Source of the DNA: Desulfatiglandales bacterium
GTDB lineage: Bacteria; Desulfobacterota; DSM-4660; Desulfatiglandales; Desulfatiglandaceae
DNA: 64,000 bases
Direction: 5' to 3'
NCBI GenBank assembly: GCA_963666345.1
Contig: OY762721.1
Coordinates: forward strand, 32,001 to 96,000
Under the pieces are notes generated by a model that was not told the DNA's origin, did not search any database, and saw only the letters and a list, made by a program, of their open reading frames with translations. The position numbers were made by a program, and so were the translations under genes. Positions 15,511 to 23,757 of this stretch are shown piece after piece. Within the stretch, counting starts at the first letter, position 1, and the number at the start of each line of letters is the position of its first letter.

Positions 15511-16008
15511 ATGAAATGTGCGGTTTGCGGAGATGAGTTTGAAGGCATTGACAAATGCCCCCACTGCGGTGCTTTTGTTGTTGAAAAACTGATAAGGTCC
15601 CATCTGTTTGACCTCGAATATTTGGCAGGAATTCTTGACAAGCTTGGTTACAGGGTCGAGCTTTCCCCGGCAGACGATAAGGGATTATACGCCAATCATG
15701 AGGAAAGGGCTAACCTTCTCGTAAATATCGACCGGGATATAGGCATAATAATGATCAGAACCCCCTGGAAGATGCAGGGGCCGGAGAATGGATCGGAAAG
15801 GGAAATGTATGAGGCTGTCAACAGGGCCAATGGTTTGACAAGGCTAAGCACGTTTTATCTGGACGAAGGAATGAAAAGCCTTATGGTTTATACCCACATA
15901 ACCCTCGGAGAAATGATTTCAGAAGAGGTCATTTGTGATTTCCTCGAAGAGTATGACCGTGAGATGGTATTTGCAATGGGTGAATCCGGCCTTTTGAAAT
16001 ATGGTTGA
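15511..16008 (+). CDS. Zinc-ribbon plus YbjN-like domain protein
   Basis: N-terminal CAVC...CPHC; the remainder (EAVNRANGLTRLSTFYLD) resembles YbjN / T3SS-chaperone-like folds. Confidence 0.6.
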   Translation: MKCAVCGDEFEGIDKCPHCGAFVVEKLIRSHLFDLEYLAGILDKLGYRVELSPADDKGLYANHEERANLLVNIDRDIGIIMIRTPWKMQGPENGSEREMYEAVNRANGLTRLSTFYLDEGMKSLMVYTHITLGEMISEEVICDFLEEYDREMVFAMGESGLLKYG

Positions 16009-16185
16009 AAAAATGAGTTTTCCATCCACAGAACTTTGATCCCTCCGATAGCCTAATCACGTTAATGGTTGATTAACGTTATTCCATGAAATCTGTCTGA
16101 AAAACCTTTATCCGCTGTCTCAAAGACCCTATAACCGTTACAAGGCAGGCGAGAAGTAAAGGCCGTAGAAAAAATCTTAAACAGC

Positions 16186-16512
16186 CTATGCCTCTGATTT
16201 GTCAATCAATCGAAGACCGACCATAAAGTGGTTTTTGAAACGATTATCCGATGCCTCTGTTATATGGACCAGCTGCGTGTCGAACTCATTTATTCCATAT
16301 TTCGAATCAGTCGGATAATATTTCATGGCGTAGGATTCACCTACCTTTAGAAATTTTAGGATCTCCGAGTCTCTGCCTATGATAATGCAGACGCCGTTTT
16401 TCGAGATATTCCATATCTTGAACTGATAAGACATGCCAAGTCCGGGGGGCGACAATTCAACACTGTAAAAGCGGTTAATTATCGATCTGGGTTCGGCTCT
16501 TCTCTCTTCCAA
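16186..16512 (-). CDS. PilZ-domain protein
   Basis: ERRAEPR (RxxxR) and NISKNG (D/NxSxxG) c-di-GMP-binding motifs. Confidence 0.8.
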   Translation of the reverse strand: MEERRAEPRSIINRFYSVELSPPGLGMSYQFKIWNISKNGVCIIIGRDSEILKFLKVGESYAMKYYPTDSKYGINEFDTQLVHITEASDNRFKNHFMVGLRLIDKSEA

Positions 16513-16750
16513 AATAATCCGTCCCGTTTGGGTTTCCAGCCATAAGCAGGTTGTGTAAATCTTAAGACACTCTGTTTCCTTTATAAGGAAGCAAGGTGAT
16601 TTAATGTTTACCTTATTAATGCGTTGTTTTCAATCAGAAAGAGTTCCTGTTACGCGCGTGAACAATAGTCATGAGTTTTTCGAATGTGATGTTTACTTTT
16701 TTCTTGAAATATCATTTGAGATGTTTTAGCCCTATATAAAATTAGATATC

Positions 16751-16804
16751 GCAAGTTATGTTCAGGCAGATGGCCATCCCGACTTGCAGGGGTGGCCATT
16801 TTTT
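16751..16804 (+). ncRNA. Candidate HMP-PP (thiS motif) riboswitch with terminator-embedded aptamer
   Basis: Terminator ATGGCCATCCC/GGGGTGGCCAT plus a T-run immediately before the SD. 5' GCAAGTT (16751-57) is complementary to loop GACTTGC (16781-87). The core ATGTTCAGGCA..GGCCATCCCGAC resembles the thiS consensus as I recall it. Confidence 0.6.
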
Positions 16805-16821
16805 ATGGAAAGGGGTCGGTA

Positions 16822-18453
16822 ATGACAGTAAGACTCGCTGTAATATTTGGATACTTTATGGTTCTTCTTTCAATCGGCTTTCTTACCAGGACAAGATGGA
16901 AAGCCACGCCTGATGAGTATTTCCTGGCAGGAAGAAGACTTGCAGGGTTTCTGCTGCTGGGTACCATGGCCGCCACCAATTTTTCGGCCTTTACCGTATT
17001 CGGAGCGTCAGGGGCCGGGTACAGGCACGGCTACGCCTTTTTTCCGATCGTTGGTTTCGGTACCGGGTTCATGGCGCTGACATTCTGGCTGATCGGAAAA
17101 AAGGCCAGGGAACTGGGAAAGGCAAATGCCCTTATCACTCCGGCTGAGCTGGTTGGGAATCTCTACTCAAACAGGTCTCTTTCCCTTGTTTTTTCAATCG
17201 TCATGATAATATTCACCATCCCCTACATAGCGCTTCAACCGATTGCAGGCGGGTATGTGCTTAACAGACTTTTTGATCTGCCTCAGGCGGCTGGTGCCTG
17301 CCTTGTAACTTTAATAATCGTAATATACACATTCAGGGGAGGGCTAAGGGCGGTTGCATGGACCGATATGTTCCAGGGTTCTTTGATGGTTGTCCTTCTG
17401 ATCGTTGCCTTTTTTCTGGTTTCAAGCCATCATGGAGGCCTGGGAAAGGCAAACGAAACGCTGCGTCTGGCAAATCCCGCTCTTCTTTCAAGACCGGGGG
17501 GGGTGGGGGCATTCGGTCCTGCCATGTGGTTCAGCTATCTCATGCTCTGGTTTTTCTGCGATCCGATGTTCCCGCAGCTATTCCAGCGCTTTTTCAGCGC
17601 GAGAAGTGAAAAAGCGCTAGCCAGGACCATGCTCTTTTATCCCTTTGTATGCACGCTTGTGTTCCTGCTGCCCGTAAGCCTGGGCGTAATGGGGACACTC
17701 ACCTTTCCAGGTCTTTCCGGTAAGGAGGCTGATCAGATCCTTCCGATCCTGTTGACCGAGATCTGCGGGGATTTCATGGGGACACTTATCATGTCCGCCG
17801 GTCTAGCAGCTCTTATGTCAACCATGGATTCTCAACTATTGACCCTCAGCTCAATTTTTACAAGGGACATATATCCTGCCGTCACAGGGCAGAAAGTAAA
17901 AAGCGCGATGCCCGGGAAGATTTTCGTCTTGGTCCTTGCAGGTCTGGGAGTCCTTATGGCGATAAATCCTCCCGGTACGATCCTGAAGATCGCCACTCAG
18001 ACATTCACCGGGCTTGCGGTGCTTTTCCCTACCGTGCTGATGGGACTATACACCAGAAGACCTGACCCGGTTGCGGCTATAACGTCCATTATTTCCGGAG
18101 AGGCGCTTGTGCTGCTTTCCTATGTGGGAAAATTTCCATCTGGAGGCTTTCTTCCGGCGGTCCCGATAATAGTGCTGGCCTTCGCGGTTTACTTCGTTGT
18201 GTCTTTTACACGCGGAAAGGGGGGTGTCGGTATCCTGCTTCCATCGAGGAGGACAATGCTGTTTTCCTTGCTTTTTCTGTCTCTGTTCGTCCTGGCAATA
18301 GACTGGTGGTGGTGGAACGATTCCGCCTCTTATCTGTGGGGATTTCCCTTTTGGGTAATATACTTTATTATTCTTTCGGCCATACAGACACTGCTTATGA
18401 GATGGTGGCTGAAAAGTGGCAGGCCACACCCCTTTGATCCGCCTGTTTCATAA
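16822..18453 (+). CDS. Sodium:solute symporter (SSS, PanF/PutP-like) with fused C-terminal small membrane domain
   Basis: EYFLAGR, ATNFSAFT, GGLRAVAWTD, PQLFQRF and AALMSTMDSQLL motifs. ATG 16822 follows GGAAAGGGG; the upstream GTG at 16792 lies inside the terminator. Confidence 0.9.
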   Translation: MTVRLAVIFGYFMVLLSIGFLTRTRWKATPDEYFLAGRRLAGFLLLGTMAATNFSAFTVFGASGAGYRHGYAFFPIVGFGTGFMALTFWLIGKKARELGKANALITPAELVGNLYSNRSLSLVFSIVMIIFTIPYIALQPIAGGYVLNRLFDLPQAAGACLVTLIIVIYTFRGGLRAVAWTDMFQGSLMVVLLIVAFFLVSSHHGGLGKANETLRLANPALLSRPGGVGAFGPAMWFSYLMLWFFCDPMFPQLFQRFFSARSEKALARTMLFYPFVCTLVFLLPVSLGVMGTLTFPGLSGKEADQILPILLTEICGDFMGTLIMSAGLAALMSTMDSQLLTLSSIFTRDIYPAVTGQKVKSAMPGKIFVLVLAGLGVLMAINPPGTILKIATQTFTGLAVLFPTVLMGLYTRRPDPVAAITSIISGEALVLLSYVGKFPSGGFLPAVPIIVLAFAVYFVVSFTRGKGGVGILLPSRRTMLFSLLFLSLFVLAIDWWWWNDSASYLWGFPFWVIYFIILSAIQTLLMRWWLKSGRPHPFDPPVS

Positions 18454-20338
18454 CGGGTTCTTCCCTTTGGCAGATCTCCTGCCTTTTAGGACAAAAAGGG
18501 TAAAAGGCGCAACCTTCAATATCCTCTGTTAGCCGCAGATGATCAACACTCACCTTACATGTCCCTGATGCGCTTTCAATCAGAAGCATGGTATAGGGAT
18601 GGACAGGCCGGGAAAGGATGAGGGAGGCCCGTCCAAACTCCACAATCCTTCCTTTAAGCATCACCGCAATTTTATCGCTTACCTTTCTGGCAAGGCCGAC
18701 GTCGTGACTTACAAAGATGGTGGTAAGGCCTTTTTCTGTCTGGAGATGCAAAAGCAGCTTTAGGACCTTTGCCTGAACGCTTGGGTCAAGAGAGCTTGTA
18801 GGCTCGTCCGCTATCAGAAGGGAAGGGGAAAGAACAAGGGCCCTGGCGATGCAGACCCGCTGAAGAGCACCCATGTTAAGCTCATGGGGGTAACGGCCAA
18901 GAAAGGAATCATCTGTTGAAAGATGAACCTCTGACAGGGCCTTTTGTACGAGATCTTTGACTTTGTGCCGGTCAGCCGCCCTGCCATGGATCCTTAGAGG
19001 TTCGGCTACCGCATCAAAAACGGAAAACCTGTGGCTTATTGATTCAGCCGGGTTTTGATATATTATACCTATCCTCTTTGAAAGGCTTTTAAAGTCTCGT
19101 TTAATCCATGTATCCATATCCTGAGCTTCAAAGGATCGTTTTCCCTTGTCAGGTTTTATGATACCGGCCGCTGTCATGGCCAGAGTGGTCTTGCCCGAGC
19201 CCGTCTCTCCGACTATAGAGACAAATTCCCCTGCCTTAAGGATGAAATCGAGCGGCTTAAGGGCAATGATGTCGCCGTAATTTTTGGATACACCATTGAG
19301 ACTCAAGATATCCACGATACCTTTTCTGAGGCACCTGAGCTGGTGGGTTCCAACTTGCTCGATTTCCACAAAACCATGTCCGCATTCTTCTGTCGCCTGT
19401 GTGCACCTGTCGTAAAAAAGGCATCCCGTGGGAGGGGCGTGTCCGTCTTTGTGGGCTGATTCAGGGGCCTTTATGTGTGAGTGTCTGTAGCGTTCCCTGT
19501 CTTTGTGGCCATGCTGGTGTATGAGCCTGTAAAAGGCGTCACCCTTGATCCCGCCCAGATCCCTTGCGGTATCCATTGAGGGGAAAGACCTTCCCAGGGC
19601 CATTGTGTATGGATGAGAGGGGTTTGAAAGCATCTCGGCAGAGGGGAGCGTTTCCATGACCTGGCCCAGATAGAGGAGCGCCATCCTTTCTGAATTCCGG
19701 ACGGCGAATTCAAGGTCATGGGTTATCAGAAGTATCGATTTACCTCTGTTTGTCGCCTTTCTTATGATCTCCGCGACAAAATCCTTGCTTAGGACATCGA
19801 GGGCGGATGTGGGCTCATCGAGTATAATCACCTCCGGATCGAGTATGTTGGCCATGGCTATCAGACAGCGCTGCACCTGGCCGCCGCTCAGCTGGTGTGG
19901 GTATTTTCGGTGGTACCGGCTGGAAAGGCCCATCTCCTCCAGAGCCGTGGCTGCAATTTGGATGGCCTCCCTTTTACCTGAACCCCGGTGCTGTAAATAA
20001 GGCTCGGCTACCTGATCCAGTACGGTATAGACCGGGTTAAGACTGGCTGCACCGTCTTGAAAAACCATTGAAAGCCTTTCCCACCTCAGCCGGTTAAGTG
20101 AATGCTCGTCAGAATAGTCGATTTTTTCCCCGCCAAGCAGTATGTCACCTTCTTTGTCCGCGTTTTCAGGAAGAAGACCGAGGCATGCCTTTCCCAGTGT
20201 GGTTTTACCTGAGCCTGATTCTCCCACCAGGGAAAGGCATTGCCCAGGTTTTATCTCAAGACTCACTTTCTCAATGGCCTGTATGCTGTGCCCGCCGTCT
20301 TTATACACGACGCTTATGTCCCTTATTTCTAAGCTCAT
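18395..20338 (-). CDS. Fused double ABC ATPase (OppD/F, NikD/E type) with His-rich linker
   Basis: Two Walker A motifs (GESGSGKT, GETGSGKT), DEPT twice, YPHQLSGG, Cys-rich C-terminal domains. ATGA overlap with the upstream permease. Confidence 0.92.
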   Translation of the reverse strand: MSLEIRDISVVYKDGGHSIQAIEKVSLEIKPGQCLSLVGESGSGKTTLGKACLGLLPENADKEGDILLGGEKIDYSDEHSLNRLRWERLSMVFQDGAASLNPVYTVLDQVAEPYLQHRGSGKREAIQIAATALEEMGLSSRYHRKYPHQLSGGQVQRCLIAMANILDPEVIILDEPTSALDVLSKDFVAEIIRKATNRGKSILLITHDLEFAVRNSERMALLYLGQVMETLPSAEMLSNPSHPYTMALGRSFPSMDTARDLGGIKGDAFYRLIHQHGHKDRERYRHSHIKAPESAHKDGHAPPTGCLFYDRCTQATEECGHGFVEIEQVGTHQLRCLRKGIVDILSLNGVSKNYGDIIALKPLDFILKAGEFVSIVGETGSGKTTLAMTAAGIIKPDKGKRSFEAQDMDTWIKRDFKSLSKRIGIIYQNPAESISHRFSVFDAVAEPLRIHGRAADRHKVKDLVQKALSEVHLSTDDSFLGRYPHELNMGALQRVCIARALVLSPSLLIADEPTSSLDPSVQAKVLKLLLHLQTEKGLTTIFVSHDVGLARKVSDKIAVMLKGRIVEFGRASLILSRPVHPYTMLLIESASGTCKVSVDHLRLTEDIEGCAFYPFCPKRQEICQREEPVMKQADQRGVACHFSATIS

Positions 20339-21195
20339 CGGTTTTTTCCTATAAGGGCCTCTCTCAAACGTGGATCAAGTGCCTTTTCAAGACTTATTGC
20401 AAGAAACGTGGCCGTCATAATAAGCAGAGAGAGACAGATTATCGGTGGAAATATCCAGTTCCACCATATATCCATGTAATAAAATTTGATGGAATAACTG
20501 ATCATCATTCCAAGTGACTTGCGGCAAGGATCAAACAGGCCTAGAAAGGCAAGGGACGCCTCCATAAATATGGCCATTCTGGCCTTTGCAGCAAAACCTA
20601 TCAGGTAGAGCGGGTATAGCTCCGGAAGCAGATGACGAATGATAATGTAACAGCTTCCTCCACCCATTTGTCGGGCGGCCCTAACGTGCAGGCTGTTTTT
20701 AAGTGAGAGGGTCTGGGCGCGGATCGCTTTGGCTATAGTGGGCCACATGAGTCCGGATAGTATTATCGCCAGAATTTCCGGCGAAGGCCTGAATAGTGCT
20801 GCTGCGAGTATAAGGACCATTATCGCCGGTATTGCAAGGAGGATGTCCGCGAGCCGCATAAGAAGCGAGTCGGCAATACCCTCGAACCAGCCTGAAGCGG
20901 TGCCTGCAACAACTCCTATCACAAGCGCTGCAAGTCCGCTTAAAAGCCCGAATGCCGTGGTGTTCCTGACCGCAAAGATCAATTCGGACAAGATGTCCTG
21001 GCCCCCGTCGTTTACGCCCAGCAGGTGCGTGCCTGTAGGCGCCGATATGGGTGAGAAGGACATTTCCCATGGATCGTAAGGCGCCACAAAAGGGCCCAAG
21101 AAGGCGATTGCAGAAAAGAACAGGGCCAGAGTAAAGCCTGCAACAAAAAAGGGATCATGCATTATGTAACTGCGCATGCTAACGTGCATTTCCAA
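20335..21195 (-). CDS. Peptide/nickel ABC permease (OppC/NikC-like)
   Basis: HLLGVNDGGQDILSELI, RHLLP and EASLAFLG motifs. Confidence 0.9.
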   Translation of the reverse strand: MEMHVSMRSYIMHDPFFVAGFTLALFFSAIAFLGPFVAPYDPWEMSFSPISAPTGTHLLGVNDGGQDILSELIFAVRNTTAFGLLSGLAALVIGVVAGTASGWFEGIADSLLMRLADILLAIPAIMVLILAAALFRPSPEILAIILSGLMWPTIAKAIRAQTLSLKNSLHVRAARQMGGGSCYIIIRHLLPELYPLYLIGFAAKARMAIFMEASLAFLGLFDPCRKSLGMMISYSIKFYYMDIWWNWIFPPIICLSLLIMTATFLAISLEKALDPRLREALIGKNR

Positions 21196-22165
21196 TCCTT
21201 GGATCGATCATCCTGTAGGTGTGCTCCATGCCTAGTATGACGGCCAGGACCATTACCGAAGAAGCGAGCACAACAGCCTGAATCACGGGCAGGTCCCGAG
21301 CCTGGATAGCGTTGAAGAGAAGTGTGCCAAGGCCGGGGTATGAATTTATTCTTTCAACCACAAGGGCGCCTGTGATCATGAAGGCGAACCTTAGGCCGAA
21401 GCGGGTTACGACAGGTAAAAGGGCATTTCTGGCAGCGTGTTTATAACGTATCTTCAGCGGTGGTATGCCTTTTGCTTTTGCCGTAATAATGAACTGCGCC
21501 TTTATAACCATTATCATACTGTTTCTGGTCAGAAGGAAATTACCGGGCACATAGGCGAGGACAAGAGTCAAAAGGGGTAGAACCAGATGATGGCCGAGAT
21601 CTAAGATCCTCTCAAAAAAGGCATTCTGCGCATATGCGGTTTCAGCACCTGAGGCGGGAAACCATTGAAGATGCAAGGCAAAAATCACAAGAAGGATGAC
21701 GCCAGAGCAGATTTCTGGTATCCCCTCGAGAAGAGTCATCCCGCCTACCATCAATTTTTCGAACCGGCTGTTTTGACGCCAGACAGCCTCCACTCCCCCT
21801 ATAAATCCCACGAGAGTTGATATTATGTGGGCCGATCCCATTAGAAGAATCGTCCATAGAAGCGCGCTGAAAAACAGGGGGGCTACCGGAGTAAGAAAAG
21901 CGTAGGAATATCCCCAATCAAGACTCAAGATCCTTATAAGGTAGGACAAAAACCCTCTGTCCTCGTTATAATAGGCCTTGAGTTCTGTCTCCTGCTGTGC
22001 TGTAAGAGTGACATTTGAACTGCCGTACATGGCGGTGATAAAGTCACCCGGCAGAAGACTCGGAATCTTATAGCTGAGATATATCATAAGAAGGGCTGTG
22101 ACACAGAAAGTCACGATAATGCCGGCCCTTCTTTTTAGTTTATCTGAACCGGCCTTTGTTTTCAT
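21179..22165 (-). CDS. Peptide/nickel ABC permease (OppB/NikB-like)
   Basis: LPGD, DWGYS, TAKAKG, HAARNALLP and YPGLG motifs. Start MKTK at 22165 overlaps the SBP stop as ATGA. Confidence 0.9.
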   Translation of the reverse strand: MKTKAGSDKLKRRAGIIVTFCVTALLMIYLSYKIPSLLPGDFITAMYGSSNVTLTAQQETELKAYYNEDRGFLSYLIRILSLDWGYSYAFLTPVAPLFFSALLWTILLMGSAHIISTLVGFIGGVEAVWRQNSRFEKLMVGGMTLLEGIPEICSGVILLVIFALHLQWFPASGAETAYAQNAFFERILDLGHHLVLPLLTLVLAYVPGNFLLTRNSMIMVIKAQFIITAKAKGIPPLKIRYKHAARNALLPVVTRFGLRFAFMITGALVVERINSYPGLGTLLFNAIQARDLPVIQAVVLASSVMVLAVILGMEHTYRMIDPRIGNAR

Positions 22166-23757
22166 TTTCTTATCAGTGACAGTTTGTTCTGGGCAATCGG
22201 TATCCCGAGCGATATGCCTCCTTTTGTATAAAACCACTTGATTCCACTTTCAGGATTGTATGCCGCCATGGAAGCGGGGTAGTAGAGGGAGATTGCAGGG
22301 AGTTCGTCCGCATAGATCTCCTGTATCTTGTAGACCAGGGCCTTTCGCTTTTCAATATCCATCTCAGTTATCTGTGACCTTAGCAGGTCCAGAAGTTCTT
22401 TGTTGGCCCCGAAACGAGCCGAATTAACCGATCCGGTGATGTTGGGATTTATCATTCTGTTAAGTATGCGGGCGTCTCCCAGGAGGCCGCCGTGACCCGA
22501 TATCGCAAGATCGAACTGCCACTTTTTGACCCTGGCGTCGGTTGTGGCCTGCTCCATGTTTGCAAGTTCCACCTTTATTCCCGCCTCCTCGAGTTGTTTC
22601 CTGATCACTTCGCCGTCCCTGTCTGCGACCGATTCCCCAGCCACTGTGATGTTTGAAGACAGCAACCCCACTTTCAACGGCTTTCCATCCCTTTCATAGA
22701 AACCATCTGATCCTTCCTTATAGCCCAGGGCTTCCAGCACCCTTCGTGCCCTTGAAGTGTCATGATTGTACTGAGGGGTGTCAGGGTTGTAAAACTCATG
22801 ATCGGGGGAAAGAAGACCGAAGGACGCAGGTGATCCAAAACCTCGGTGTGCCTTCTCTATTATTTCCTGGCGGTCGATTGCGTAGGCCAGGGCTCTTCTG
22901 AAGCACTTGTCGTCAAGCGGGGCCTTTTTGTGATTTATCATCAGCTTTTTATTCCAGCCCCTTGCGTTTTCAATTATTGTCATTCCCTTTTCCAGGAGTG
23001 GCTTTGCCATGTCGGGCTTTATGTTTGCCATGTCCGCATTTCCGGTCAAGAGGGTCATTATGGGATTTCCCGCCTTTATGTATATAAGGCGATCTGTAAG
23101 AGGTCTTCCCATATAATATTGTCTGTTCGCCTCGTAGAGATAAGTCCCTTTTGTCTTGTCAAAATCGATGAATTTGAATGGGCCGGAGCCTATAAATGCC
23201 GCTGGTTCATTGAACTTCCTCGGTTCATCTACGTTTTCCCATATATGCTTCGGGATAATGGGCATGGTACCCCCGATATAGGCTATAAAGGGGGCGTAAG
23301 GTTTATGGAGGGTTATTGCAACCTCATTAGGGCCGACCTGCTCTGCCCCTTTGACCTGTTCCATCGGAACCCAGTTGTACGGGTGTTTCTTGAAATATTT
23401 TACCGTAAAGACGACATCATCCGCACTGAAAGGAGTTCCGTCATGCCATTTTATGTCGTTTCTGAGCCTGAAGACAAAACTCAATGTCTCCGGCCTGTAT
23501 TTCCAGGAAGAGGCAAGGGCGGGTAGATAACCTTTTTGGTCCTTCCAGATAAGGGTGTCAAAGACCCAGCTCATCCTAATATAACCGGGCCCTCTCGGGT
23601 AATGGCGGTAGGGATTGGGATATCCCCAGTCTCCCTTGCTGTCGGAGATGCGAATCTCTTTTAAAATCTCCTGGGCCATGAGCTGAGAAGAACTGCTTAA
23701 AATGCCAAGAATCAAGAAAGAAAAAATAAAAGTGCAAATAGTTAATCTCAATTTCAT
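22162..23757 (-). CDS. Family-5 ABC substrate-binding protein (NikA/DppA/OppA-like)
   Basis: Signal peptide; KWHDGTPFSADDVVFT, IGSGPF and RRALAYAIDR motifs. Confidence 0.92.
   Translation of the reverse strand: MKLRLTICTFIFSFLILGILSSSSQLMAQEILKEIRISDSKGDWGYPNPYRHYPRGPGYIRMSWVFDTLIWKDQKGYLPALASSWKYRPETLSFVFRLRNDIKWHDGTPFSADDVVFTVKYFKKHPYNWVPMEQVKGAEQVGPNEVAITLHKPYAPFIAYIGGTMPIIPKHIWENVDEPRKFNEPAAFIGSGPFKFIDFDKTKGTYLYEANRQYYMGRPLTDRLIYIKAGNPIMTLLTGNADMANIKPDMAKPLLEKGMTIIENARGWNKKLMINHKKAPLDDKCFRRALAYAIDRQEIIEKAHRGFGSPASFGLLSPDHEFYNPDTPQYNHDTSRARRVLEALGYKEGSDGFYERDGKPLKVGLLSSNITVAGESVADRDGEVIRKQLEEAGIKVELANMEQATTDARVKKWQFDLAISGHGGLLGDARILNRMINPNITGSVNSARFGANKELLDLLRSQITEMDIEKRKALVYKIQEIYADELPAISLYYPASMAAYNPESGIKWFYTKGGISLGIPIAQNKLSLIRK

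Follow-up and report, generated by a model that had tools for sequence, protein, structure and literature searches.

A leader RNA overlapping an intrinsic terminator, probably controlling p-aminobenzoate supply and found mostly in Desulfobacterota, with a candidate p-aminobenzoate importer of the SSS family

The ZTP (5-aminoimidazole-4-carboxamide riboside triphosphate; pfl motif) riboswitch is an ON switch that answers a symptom of folate shortage, and the tetrahydrofolate (THF) riboswitches switch genes OFF. According to PMC6800512 and PMC11317127, the THF-I and THF-II (folE motif) classes sense the end product of the folate pathway and act on folT, or on folE and further fol genes, THF-II being a small hairpin-type aptamer. 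In thiamin metabolism, the thiS-motif riboswitch for hydroxymethylpyrimidine diphosphate (HMP-PP) is a very small aptamer lying nearly all within an intrinsic terminator, an ON switch in which bases of the terminator loop join an alternative fold; it accompanies only one of the two branches of its vitamin pathway, a hint that it senses the precursor supplied by the other (Atilho et al. 2019, PMC6478431). Here we describe a leader RNA that appears to share these properties with the HMP-PP riboswitch but stands in front of other genes. It lies at 16751-16806 of a 64,000-nucleotide stretch of a Desulfatiglandales genome (assembly GCA_963666345.1, contig OY762721.1, positions 32,001 to 96,000; the whole stretch is called the window below), directly upstream of a gene for a symporter of the SSS (sodium:solute symporter) family, P0001. 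An earlier note on this DNA had read the leader as a probable thiS-motif HMP-PP riboswitch and the symporter as a candidate importer of thiazole. Our results suggest a different function: the leader probably represents a previously undescribed class of cis-regulatory RNA, mostly from Desulfobacterota, that controls the supply of p-aminobenzoate (PABA), and the SSS protein would be a PABA importer. The parts of the leader and the gene are:

16700..16750, + strand: AT-rich presumed promoter region, read from the sequence only
16751..16757, + strand: 5' strand of helix P1, GCAAGUU; its outer pairs covary and the G-U-U is nearly invariant
16758..16764, + strand: internal-loop strand J1/2, AUGUUCA; consensus AUG, 0-5 nt, then (C/U)A
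16765..16775, + strand: hairpin P2, with GGC at 16765-16767, the loop AGAUG at 16768-16772 and GCC at 16773-16775
16776..16780, + strand: internal-loop strand J2/1, AUCCC; variants elsewhere are AUCCA and ACCCA
16781..16787, + strand: 3' strand of P1, GACUUGC, inside the terminator loop, from sequence and covariation
16768..16806, + strand: intrinsic terminator, with the 5' arm at 16768-16780, the loop at 16781-16788 and the 3' arm at 16789-16801
16807..16815, + strand: Shine-Dalgarno-like GGAAAGGGG, placed by its letters alone
16822..18453, + strand: SSS-family symporter P0001, 543 amino acids, candidate PABA importer (Pfam SSF; leader shared by orthologues)

In the window, P1 has seven pairs (G16751-C16787, C16752-G16786, A16753-U16785, A16754-U16784, G16755-C16783, U16756-A16782 and U16757.G16781), the last of them G.U. 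The pairing of GCAAGTT (16751-16757) with GACTTGC (16781-16787) in the terminator loop had been seen correctly in the earlier note, as had the length of the leader, 54 nt from 16751 to 16804. The terminator stem has 13 bp and its loop 8 nt (16781-16788, GACUUGCA); the six-U run at 16799-16804 is followed by A16805 and U16806, and the ATG of the SSS gene is at 16822. A TAAAAT lies at 16737-16742, about 8 nt 5' of P1. With ViennaRNA, the 86-nt segment 16740-16825 adopts the terminator fold (-28.3 kcal/mol, z = -2.92), an energy matched by 1 of 200 shuffles. An automated terminator scan missed this terminator; that the stem runs into the U tract may explain the miss. Since a 7-bp match in a single sequence is weak evidence, the reality of the P1 pairing rests on comparative data.

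SSS orthologues with 55-60% identity were found in four relatives, two of which carry the same leader directly upstream. The helix between the 5' strand and the terminator loop changes in a compensatory manner in the window and two relatives (GCAAGUU/GACUUGC, CAAAGUU/GACUUUG and AAGGUU/GACCUU). In a third relative, G011 (L003; L151:1501-1540, minus strand), the motif takes the variant form GUAAGGC / CCCAAC and stands about 330 nt ahead of the SSS start codon, with some three copies of a 60-70-nt repeat in between, every one of which ends in a GC-rich hairpin.

The conserved bases were written as the pattern GTTATG-N(1,2)-CAGGC-N(3,6)-GCCATCCCGAC, with 22 specified bases, and matched exactly against a collection of 185,579 species with one genome per species. 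The search returned 99 stretches, against about 0.5 expected by chance according to our own estimate. Judged by these numbers, the leader is a widely conserved structured RNA, far beyond chance. Counts by locus below cover 80 of the 99 stretches. By label, 75 of these loci come from Desulfobacterota or 'delta proteobacteria' (the lineage that the earlier note had suspected for the window), 2 from Pseudomonadota or Proteobacteria and one each from Leptospirales, Dehalococcoidia and an organism labelled 'bacterium'. The motif is present across several orders, the Leptospirales and Dehalococcoidia carriers being single metagenome-assembled genomes (MAGs). A covariance model built from the 80 instances (R1) found one copy in the window's genome; in a phylum-wide sample of 151 genomes it picked up divergent variants in 12. 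With a second model (R2), 39 of 151 genomes from the window's class proved to carry the motif, with one match apiece.

The instances share one layout: a P1 5' strand that is variable and then G-U-U, AUG, 0-5 nt, (C/U)A, GGC, a loop of 3-8 nt, GCC, AUCCC (or AUCCA or ACCCA), and G-A-C followed by the variable P1 3' strand. The invariant core is GUUAUG..CAGGC..GCCAUCCCGAC, and the hairpin measures about 37 nt. P1 consists of 3-7 variable pairs plus G-C, U-A and U.G, and encloses an asymmetric internal loop whose bases are near-invariant (AUG..YA on one side, AUCCC on the other); A11, U12, G13 and A18 of J1/2 are invariant across 92 distinct sequences. The P1 helix is strongly supported by the alignments. 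In a MAFFT alignment of the 80 sequences, pair 7-39 is GC in 54, AU in 25 and GU in 1, and is never unpaired, while pair 6-40 occurs as five pair types and is unpaired in 6 of 80; the covariation score is 0.260 against 0.118 in shuffled alignments, and 0 of 500 shuffles reach it. The alignment fitted to the model, which is biased towards the structure, gives for the 92 distinct sequences GC 55, AU 36, GU 1 and unpaired 0 at pair 7-41, and AU 43, GC 36, UA 4, GU/UG 3 and unpaired 6 at pair 6-42, with a score of 0.299 against 0.130 (again 0 of 500 shuffles). Moreover, the conserved U-A pair of P1 is replaced by C-G in 2 of the 92. P2 is GGC/GCC in 91 of 92 sequences and GGU/GCC, with a G.U pair, in the other, and its loop varies in length and sequence. 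The complementarity of its strands, the variable loop between them and the folding energy suggest that P2 forms: 62 of 67 distinct truncated leaders are predicted to fold as P1 plus P2 and 4 more form P2, so that 66 of the 67 minimum free energy folds contain it.

The hairpin and the terminator share sequence. The 5' arm of the terminator contains the P2 3' strand and the 3' half of the internal loop, and the terminator loop contains the P1 3' strand. The 3' arm pairs 8/8 with GCCAUCCC in 72 of the 80 leaders, and all 80 match at least 6/8; the terminator stems measure 9-17 bp, most of them with a U-rich tail behind. Between the P1 3' strand and the terminator 3' arm the gap is at most 1 nt in 35 of 80 leaders, and it is negative, that is, the two overlap, in 19. 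Full leaders are predicted to fold as terminators, with a mean energy of -29.1 kcal/mol compared to -9.0 kcal/mol for the truncated hairpin. Because the full-leader fold is so much the stronger, the default state would be termination, and because the 3' half of the hairpin is shared with the terminator, locking the hairpin should give read-through. The leader, with its presumed sensing hairpin embedded in an intrinsic terminator, would thus act as an ON switch, as the earlier note had also proposed. We also considered an H-type pseudoknot in which P1 coexists with the full terminator and rejected it: judged by general pseudoknot geometry, the linkers are too short for a P1 of 4-10 bp.

What the motif controls was taken from the first co-directional gene of each locus, identified by tblastn with exemplar proteins, and from Pfam profiles for the domains. 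This gene is an SSS orthologue in 53 loci, a LivJ-type binding protein in 11, pabA in 8 and a major facilitator superfamily (MFS) transporter in 3; in 5 no gene was assigned. The LivJ-type genes are followed by branched-chain-type permeases in 8 of the 11 loci, the other three being too short to show them. The pabA loci encode, by Pfam, a GATase domain, then Anth_synt_I_N plus Chorismate_bind, then a class-IV aminotransferase of the PabC type (Aminotran_4). All four motif-linked chorismate enzymes tested pass the pabB model TIGR00553 (328.9, 354, 332.9 and 341.5 against a cut-off of 328.4) and fail trpE_most (366-391 against 517.7). The motif-linked biosynthetic loci are pabA-pabB-pabC operons. 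The two MFS proteins tested match the aromatic acid/H+ symporter (AAHS) family best, though with a score below its cut-off. The divergent variants of the phylum sample stand in the same two contexts, pabA-pabB or SSS. Among the 80 loci, no thiamin, pterin-branch or one-carbon genes were found downstream. Two of the five loci lacking an assigned gene are at contig ends, and three (L076, L077 and L091) are unexplained.

Some single loci deserve mention. L076:1-29 and L077:2501-2529 are two motif copies on one contig, 2.9 kb apart; the L077 copy sits between minus-strand open reading frames (ORFs), with no gene of any known family running in its direction within 2.5 kb, and may be an orphan or decayed. 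At L091:2501-2529, the motif has a weak P1 (4 bp) and a terminator arm matching 6/8, and it precedes by 172 nt a gene for a NiFe hydrogenase small subunit, off the PABA regulon. The motif-linked pabB at L041:3231-4564 is split into two overlapping ORFs, either by a frameshift or by an assembly error. At L049:51-968 (minus strand), a DUF5996 gene (278.6 bits) follows a motif-controlled MFS gene of the aromatic-acid type and may share a PABA-related unit with it.

P0001 matches Pfam SSF (PF00474) over the whole profile (E = 1e-47, 163.4 bits; residues 33-426, profile positions 1-406 of 406). It belongs with the PanF- and PutP-type symporters, yet lies far under both cut-offs: its best NCBIfam model, panF (TIGR02119), scores 189.3 bits against 328.05, PutP gives 158 against 515, and P0001 is below all NCBIfam equivalog cut-offs. 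Among the 120 relatives of P0001 listed, names are absent or generic for the family ('sodium:solute symporter family protein'). The view of this gene as an unannotated PanF-like symporter under control of the leader therefore stands (panF 189 bits against 328; generic names). We know of no SSS protein to which PABA has been assigned as a substrate. Co-regulation with pabABC, together with the genome content given below, makes P0001 a candidate PABA importer.

The window's genome (one contig, 96.7% complete) encodes FolP (288.7 bits) and FolK (118.8 bits). It has no match to Chorismate_bind (PF00425), a search whose control was positive in 14 of 14 genomes, and no match to the pabB model. Note that the missing Chorismate_bind means that TrpE and enzymes of the MenF/EntC type are also missing, and this organism may be a tryptophan auxotroph. 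PabB and FolK were searched in 50 of the 80 motif genomes, 8 with a pab operon and 42 with a motif-linked transporter. A PabB-type match is present in 8 of 8 pab-operon genomes (7 over the cut-off, one split into two ORFs). In the transporter-linked genomes, by contrast, PabB passes the cut-off in 1 of 42, a 12.5-Mb record, and is lacking in the other 41. Since 33 of these 41 keep a lower-scoring TrpE-like match, genome incompleteness is not the reason for the absence of PabB. FolK was found in 47 of the 50 genomes, including 39 of the 42 with transporters. In the class sample, a PabB-like gene lies in the orientation of the motif and at most about 2.2 kb downstream of it, on one contig, in 21 of the 39 motif genomes; the other 18 have no PabB over the cut-off anywhere (0/18). 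In the phylum sample, PabB is found in 77 of 151 genomes. As a discriminating test within the window's class, PabB absence was discarded: 99 of the 112 motif-less genomes are also without PabB over the cut-off.

If confirmed, this pattern would reveal PABA auxotrophy, combined with synthesis of the pterin arm of folate, in many Desulfobacterota. Classical Desulfobacter species need 4-aminobenzoate; a literature search for a PABA requirement in Desulfobacter returned nothing usable. PABA auxotrophy in Geobacter is treated in PMC2996986, whose subject is not an RNA.

Taken together, pabABC or importers stand under one RNA, and the importers occur in genomes with the pterin arm but without PABA synthesis, which would most simply mean that the transporters, the window's SSS protein among them, import PABA. 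The following mechanism would account for this. With the terminator winning by default, transcription would end short of the gene. Stabilisation of the hairpin, for which a small molecule bound in the internal loop is the most likely agent, would keep the terminator from forming and allow the gene to be read. Since the regulated genes would all serve PABA supply, the signal should mean that PABA is short, the targets being the pabA-pabB-pabC genes or an importer of one of the three kinds; the window's organism appears to be a PABA auxotroph, for which the SSS protein would import PABA. Our best guess for the ligand, drawn from this logic and from the analogy with HMP-PP and thiazole, is 6-hydroxymethyl-7,8-dihydropterin diphosphate (DHPPP), the co-substrate of dihydropteroate synthase, which would pile up when PABA is missing; the guess is a tentative one. 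In its most far-reaching form, in which DHPPP or its unphosphorylated form is the ligand, the new riboswitch class balances both folate arms, much as thiamin synthesis is balanced by HMP-PP riboswitches, and its regulon holds the first dedicated bacterial PABA importers (in SSS, LivJ-type ABC, or ATP-binding cassette, and AAHS-like MFS), the proposal is possible but doubtful. In common with metabolite-binding riboswitches in general, the motif has a covarying structured 5' leader, an overlapping expression platform and a coherent regulon. No PABA or pab riboswitch or other such RNA element was found in Rfam 15 or in the literature searched; the main texts of PMC8632094, PMC11109978, PMC5737381 and 10.64898/2026.10.21.760802 do not mention one, and their supplements could list such a motif.

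The likeness to the HMP-PP riboswitch is one of general architecture: a small aptamer embedded in a terminator, pairing to the loop and ON logic (PMC6478431). That the leader belongs to the thiS motif and controls a thiazole importer is nonetheless already contradicted, and the chance of it is negligible. According to the same paper, the class is exclusively associated with genes for the synthesis or use of thiazole (hydroxyethylthiazole phosphate, HET-P), such as thiS, thiE, thiW and the like, and its reported range covers two phyla, with several classes of Firmicutes among them; its terminator has a conserved loop with conserved pyrimidines, a G run that wobbles (G.U) with the U tract, and a pseudoknot for which G26 and C35 are essential, and the two experimentally validated RNAs (C. 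sp. Maddingley and C. lundense) share GGGGU(A/G)CACCACC..GGGUGUA. Compared by eye with these two RNAs, 16751-16806 contains neither the GGGGURCACCACC..GGGUGUA core nor the G/U-wobble base, and the core GUUAUG..CAGGC..GCCAUCCCGAC is absent from both validated HMP-PP RNAs. The folds differ as well: the tip of the thiS terminator (P2) is kept in both states and its pseudoknot joins the G run to the loop, whereas here the 5' strand and the terminator loop form an ordinary closing helix. The thiS regulon comprises the thiazole genes of thiamin synthesis; the one described here comprises pabABC and transporters, mostly in Desulfobacterota, with a thiamin gene in 0 of 80 loci. The assignment to the HMP-PP family was therefore rejected for lack of the conserved core and of the thiazole-gene association, and thiazole as the substrate falls with it, the gene context being PABA synthesis and transport. 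Rfam gave no match: cmscan with Rfam 15 found four tRNAs only in the whole window at the gathering score, chance-level matches only in 16650-16850 at E <= 10, and tRNAs and chance-level matches only in 20 other motif loci (the presence of a thiS model in Rfam 15 is unconfirmed, and for the thiS motif these searches had no positive control).

The same RNA class could instead be an OFF switch in which PABA or a folate end product favours the terminator and so turns off both synthesis and uptake of PABA. Its regulon, PABA-branch genes only, is what end-product feedback would give, and most biosynthetic riboswitches are OFF switches (PMC6478431). This is unlikely, given that the conserved hairpin overlaps the terminator arm directly with no separate antiterminator visible, and that the terminator (-29 kcal/mol on average) already beats the hairpin (-9) unaided; with linkers of at most 1 nt in 35 of 80 leaders, P1 and the terminator are mutually exclusive in many of them, and a ligand on P1 plus P2 should prevent termination. 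Less likely again is that the hairpin is bound by a protein, or by some other factor acting in trans, which would prevent termination as in PyrR- or TRAP-like attenuation. The motif is small, its invariant bases could equally serve recognition by a protein, and the binding of a ligand is so far inferred only. However, the co-directional downstream genes vary by locus and include no recurring candidate regulator, the size and architecture fit known small riboswitches, and a self-sufficient cassette would more easily spread over several orders and to the single Leptospirales and Dehalococcoidia MAGs. An ON switch for ZTP or its monophosphate ZMP, as general alarmones of folate shortage rather than a branch-specific pterin precursor, would fit the ON logic, since PABA shortage leads to folate shortage; such a general signal should also cover one-carbon and purine genes, which none of the 80 loci has, and Rfam showed no pfl/ZTP match to the window or to any of the 20 other motif loci. 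This explanation is very improbable, and the ZTP riboswitch differs from the PABA-linked motif in its larger, pseudoknotted fold and broad one-carbon and purine regulon. THF-I and THF-II, for which Rfam holds models, likewise have no Rfam 15 match in the window or the 20 other loci; they belong to the same pathway but sense its end product, whereas the present motif is linked to PABA supply only, with ON control implied.

Several observations weigh against a PABA-supply ON switch as set out above. A PABA-sensing OFF switch would yield the identical regulon, and the ON direction is argued solely from structural logic. P2, being invariant, is without covariation support. The sigma-70 scan of 16000-18800 returned no promoter. 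The loci L076, L077 and L091 have no fitting gene downstream. The motif-bearing genomes are related and the genome sets overlap, so the counts are not independent. Finally, in the class genomes without the motif PabB is found in 13 of 112 only; since PabB is rare in the class anyway, the contrast in PabB content is weak there and holds only against the phylum sample.

If confirmed, the motif would define a new riboswitch class that counts well over a hundred members and has a new regulon on a known principle. It would be the second known case of an ON aptamer embedded in a terminator, and possibly also the second 'partner-precursor' sensor. It would also offer PABA uptake as a concrete function that can be tested for an unannotated SSS subfamily and for sets of ABC and MFS transporters, and, if true, would explain how PABA-auxotrophic sulfate reducers obtain PABA. 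PABA auxotrophy of many Desulfobacterota would be relevant to their cultivation and to vitamin cross-feeding in sediments.

Two further observations concern the SSS gene and its family. In the two related genomes G035 and G038 (L006 and L007), a distant SSS paralogue with 25-26% identity to P0001 has two in-frame TAG codons; these could reflect pyrrolysine or read-through of the stops, but also a gene that is split or an artefact of the alignment. In the window, an ABC transporter operon of the Opp/Dpp type lies on the minus strand at 18395-23757, in convergent orientation to the SSS gene; it encodes SBP_bac_5, two permeases and a double ATPase, fused and with oligo_HPY, and its final gene shares 59 nt with the 3' end of the SSS gene.

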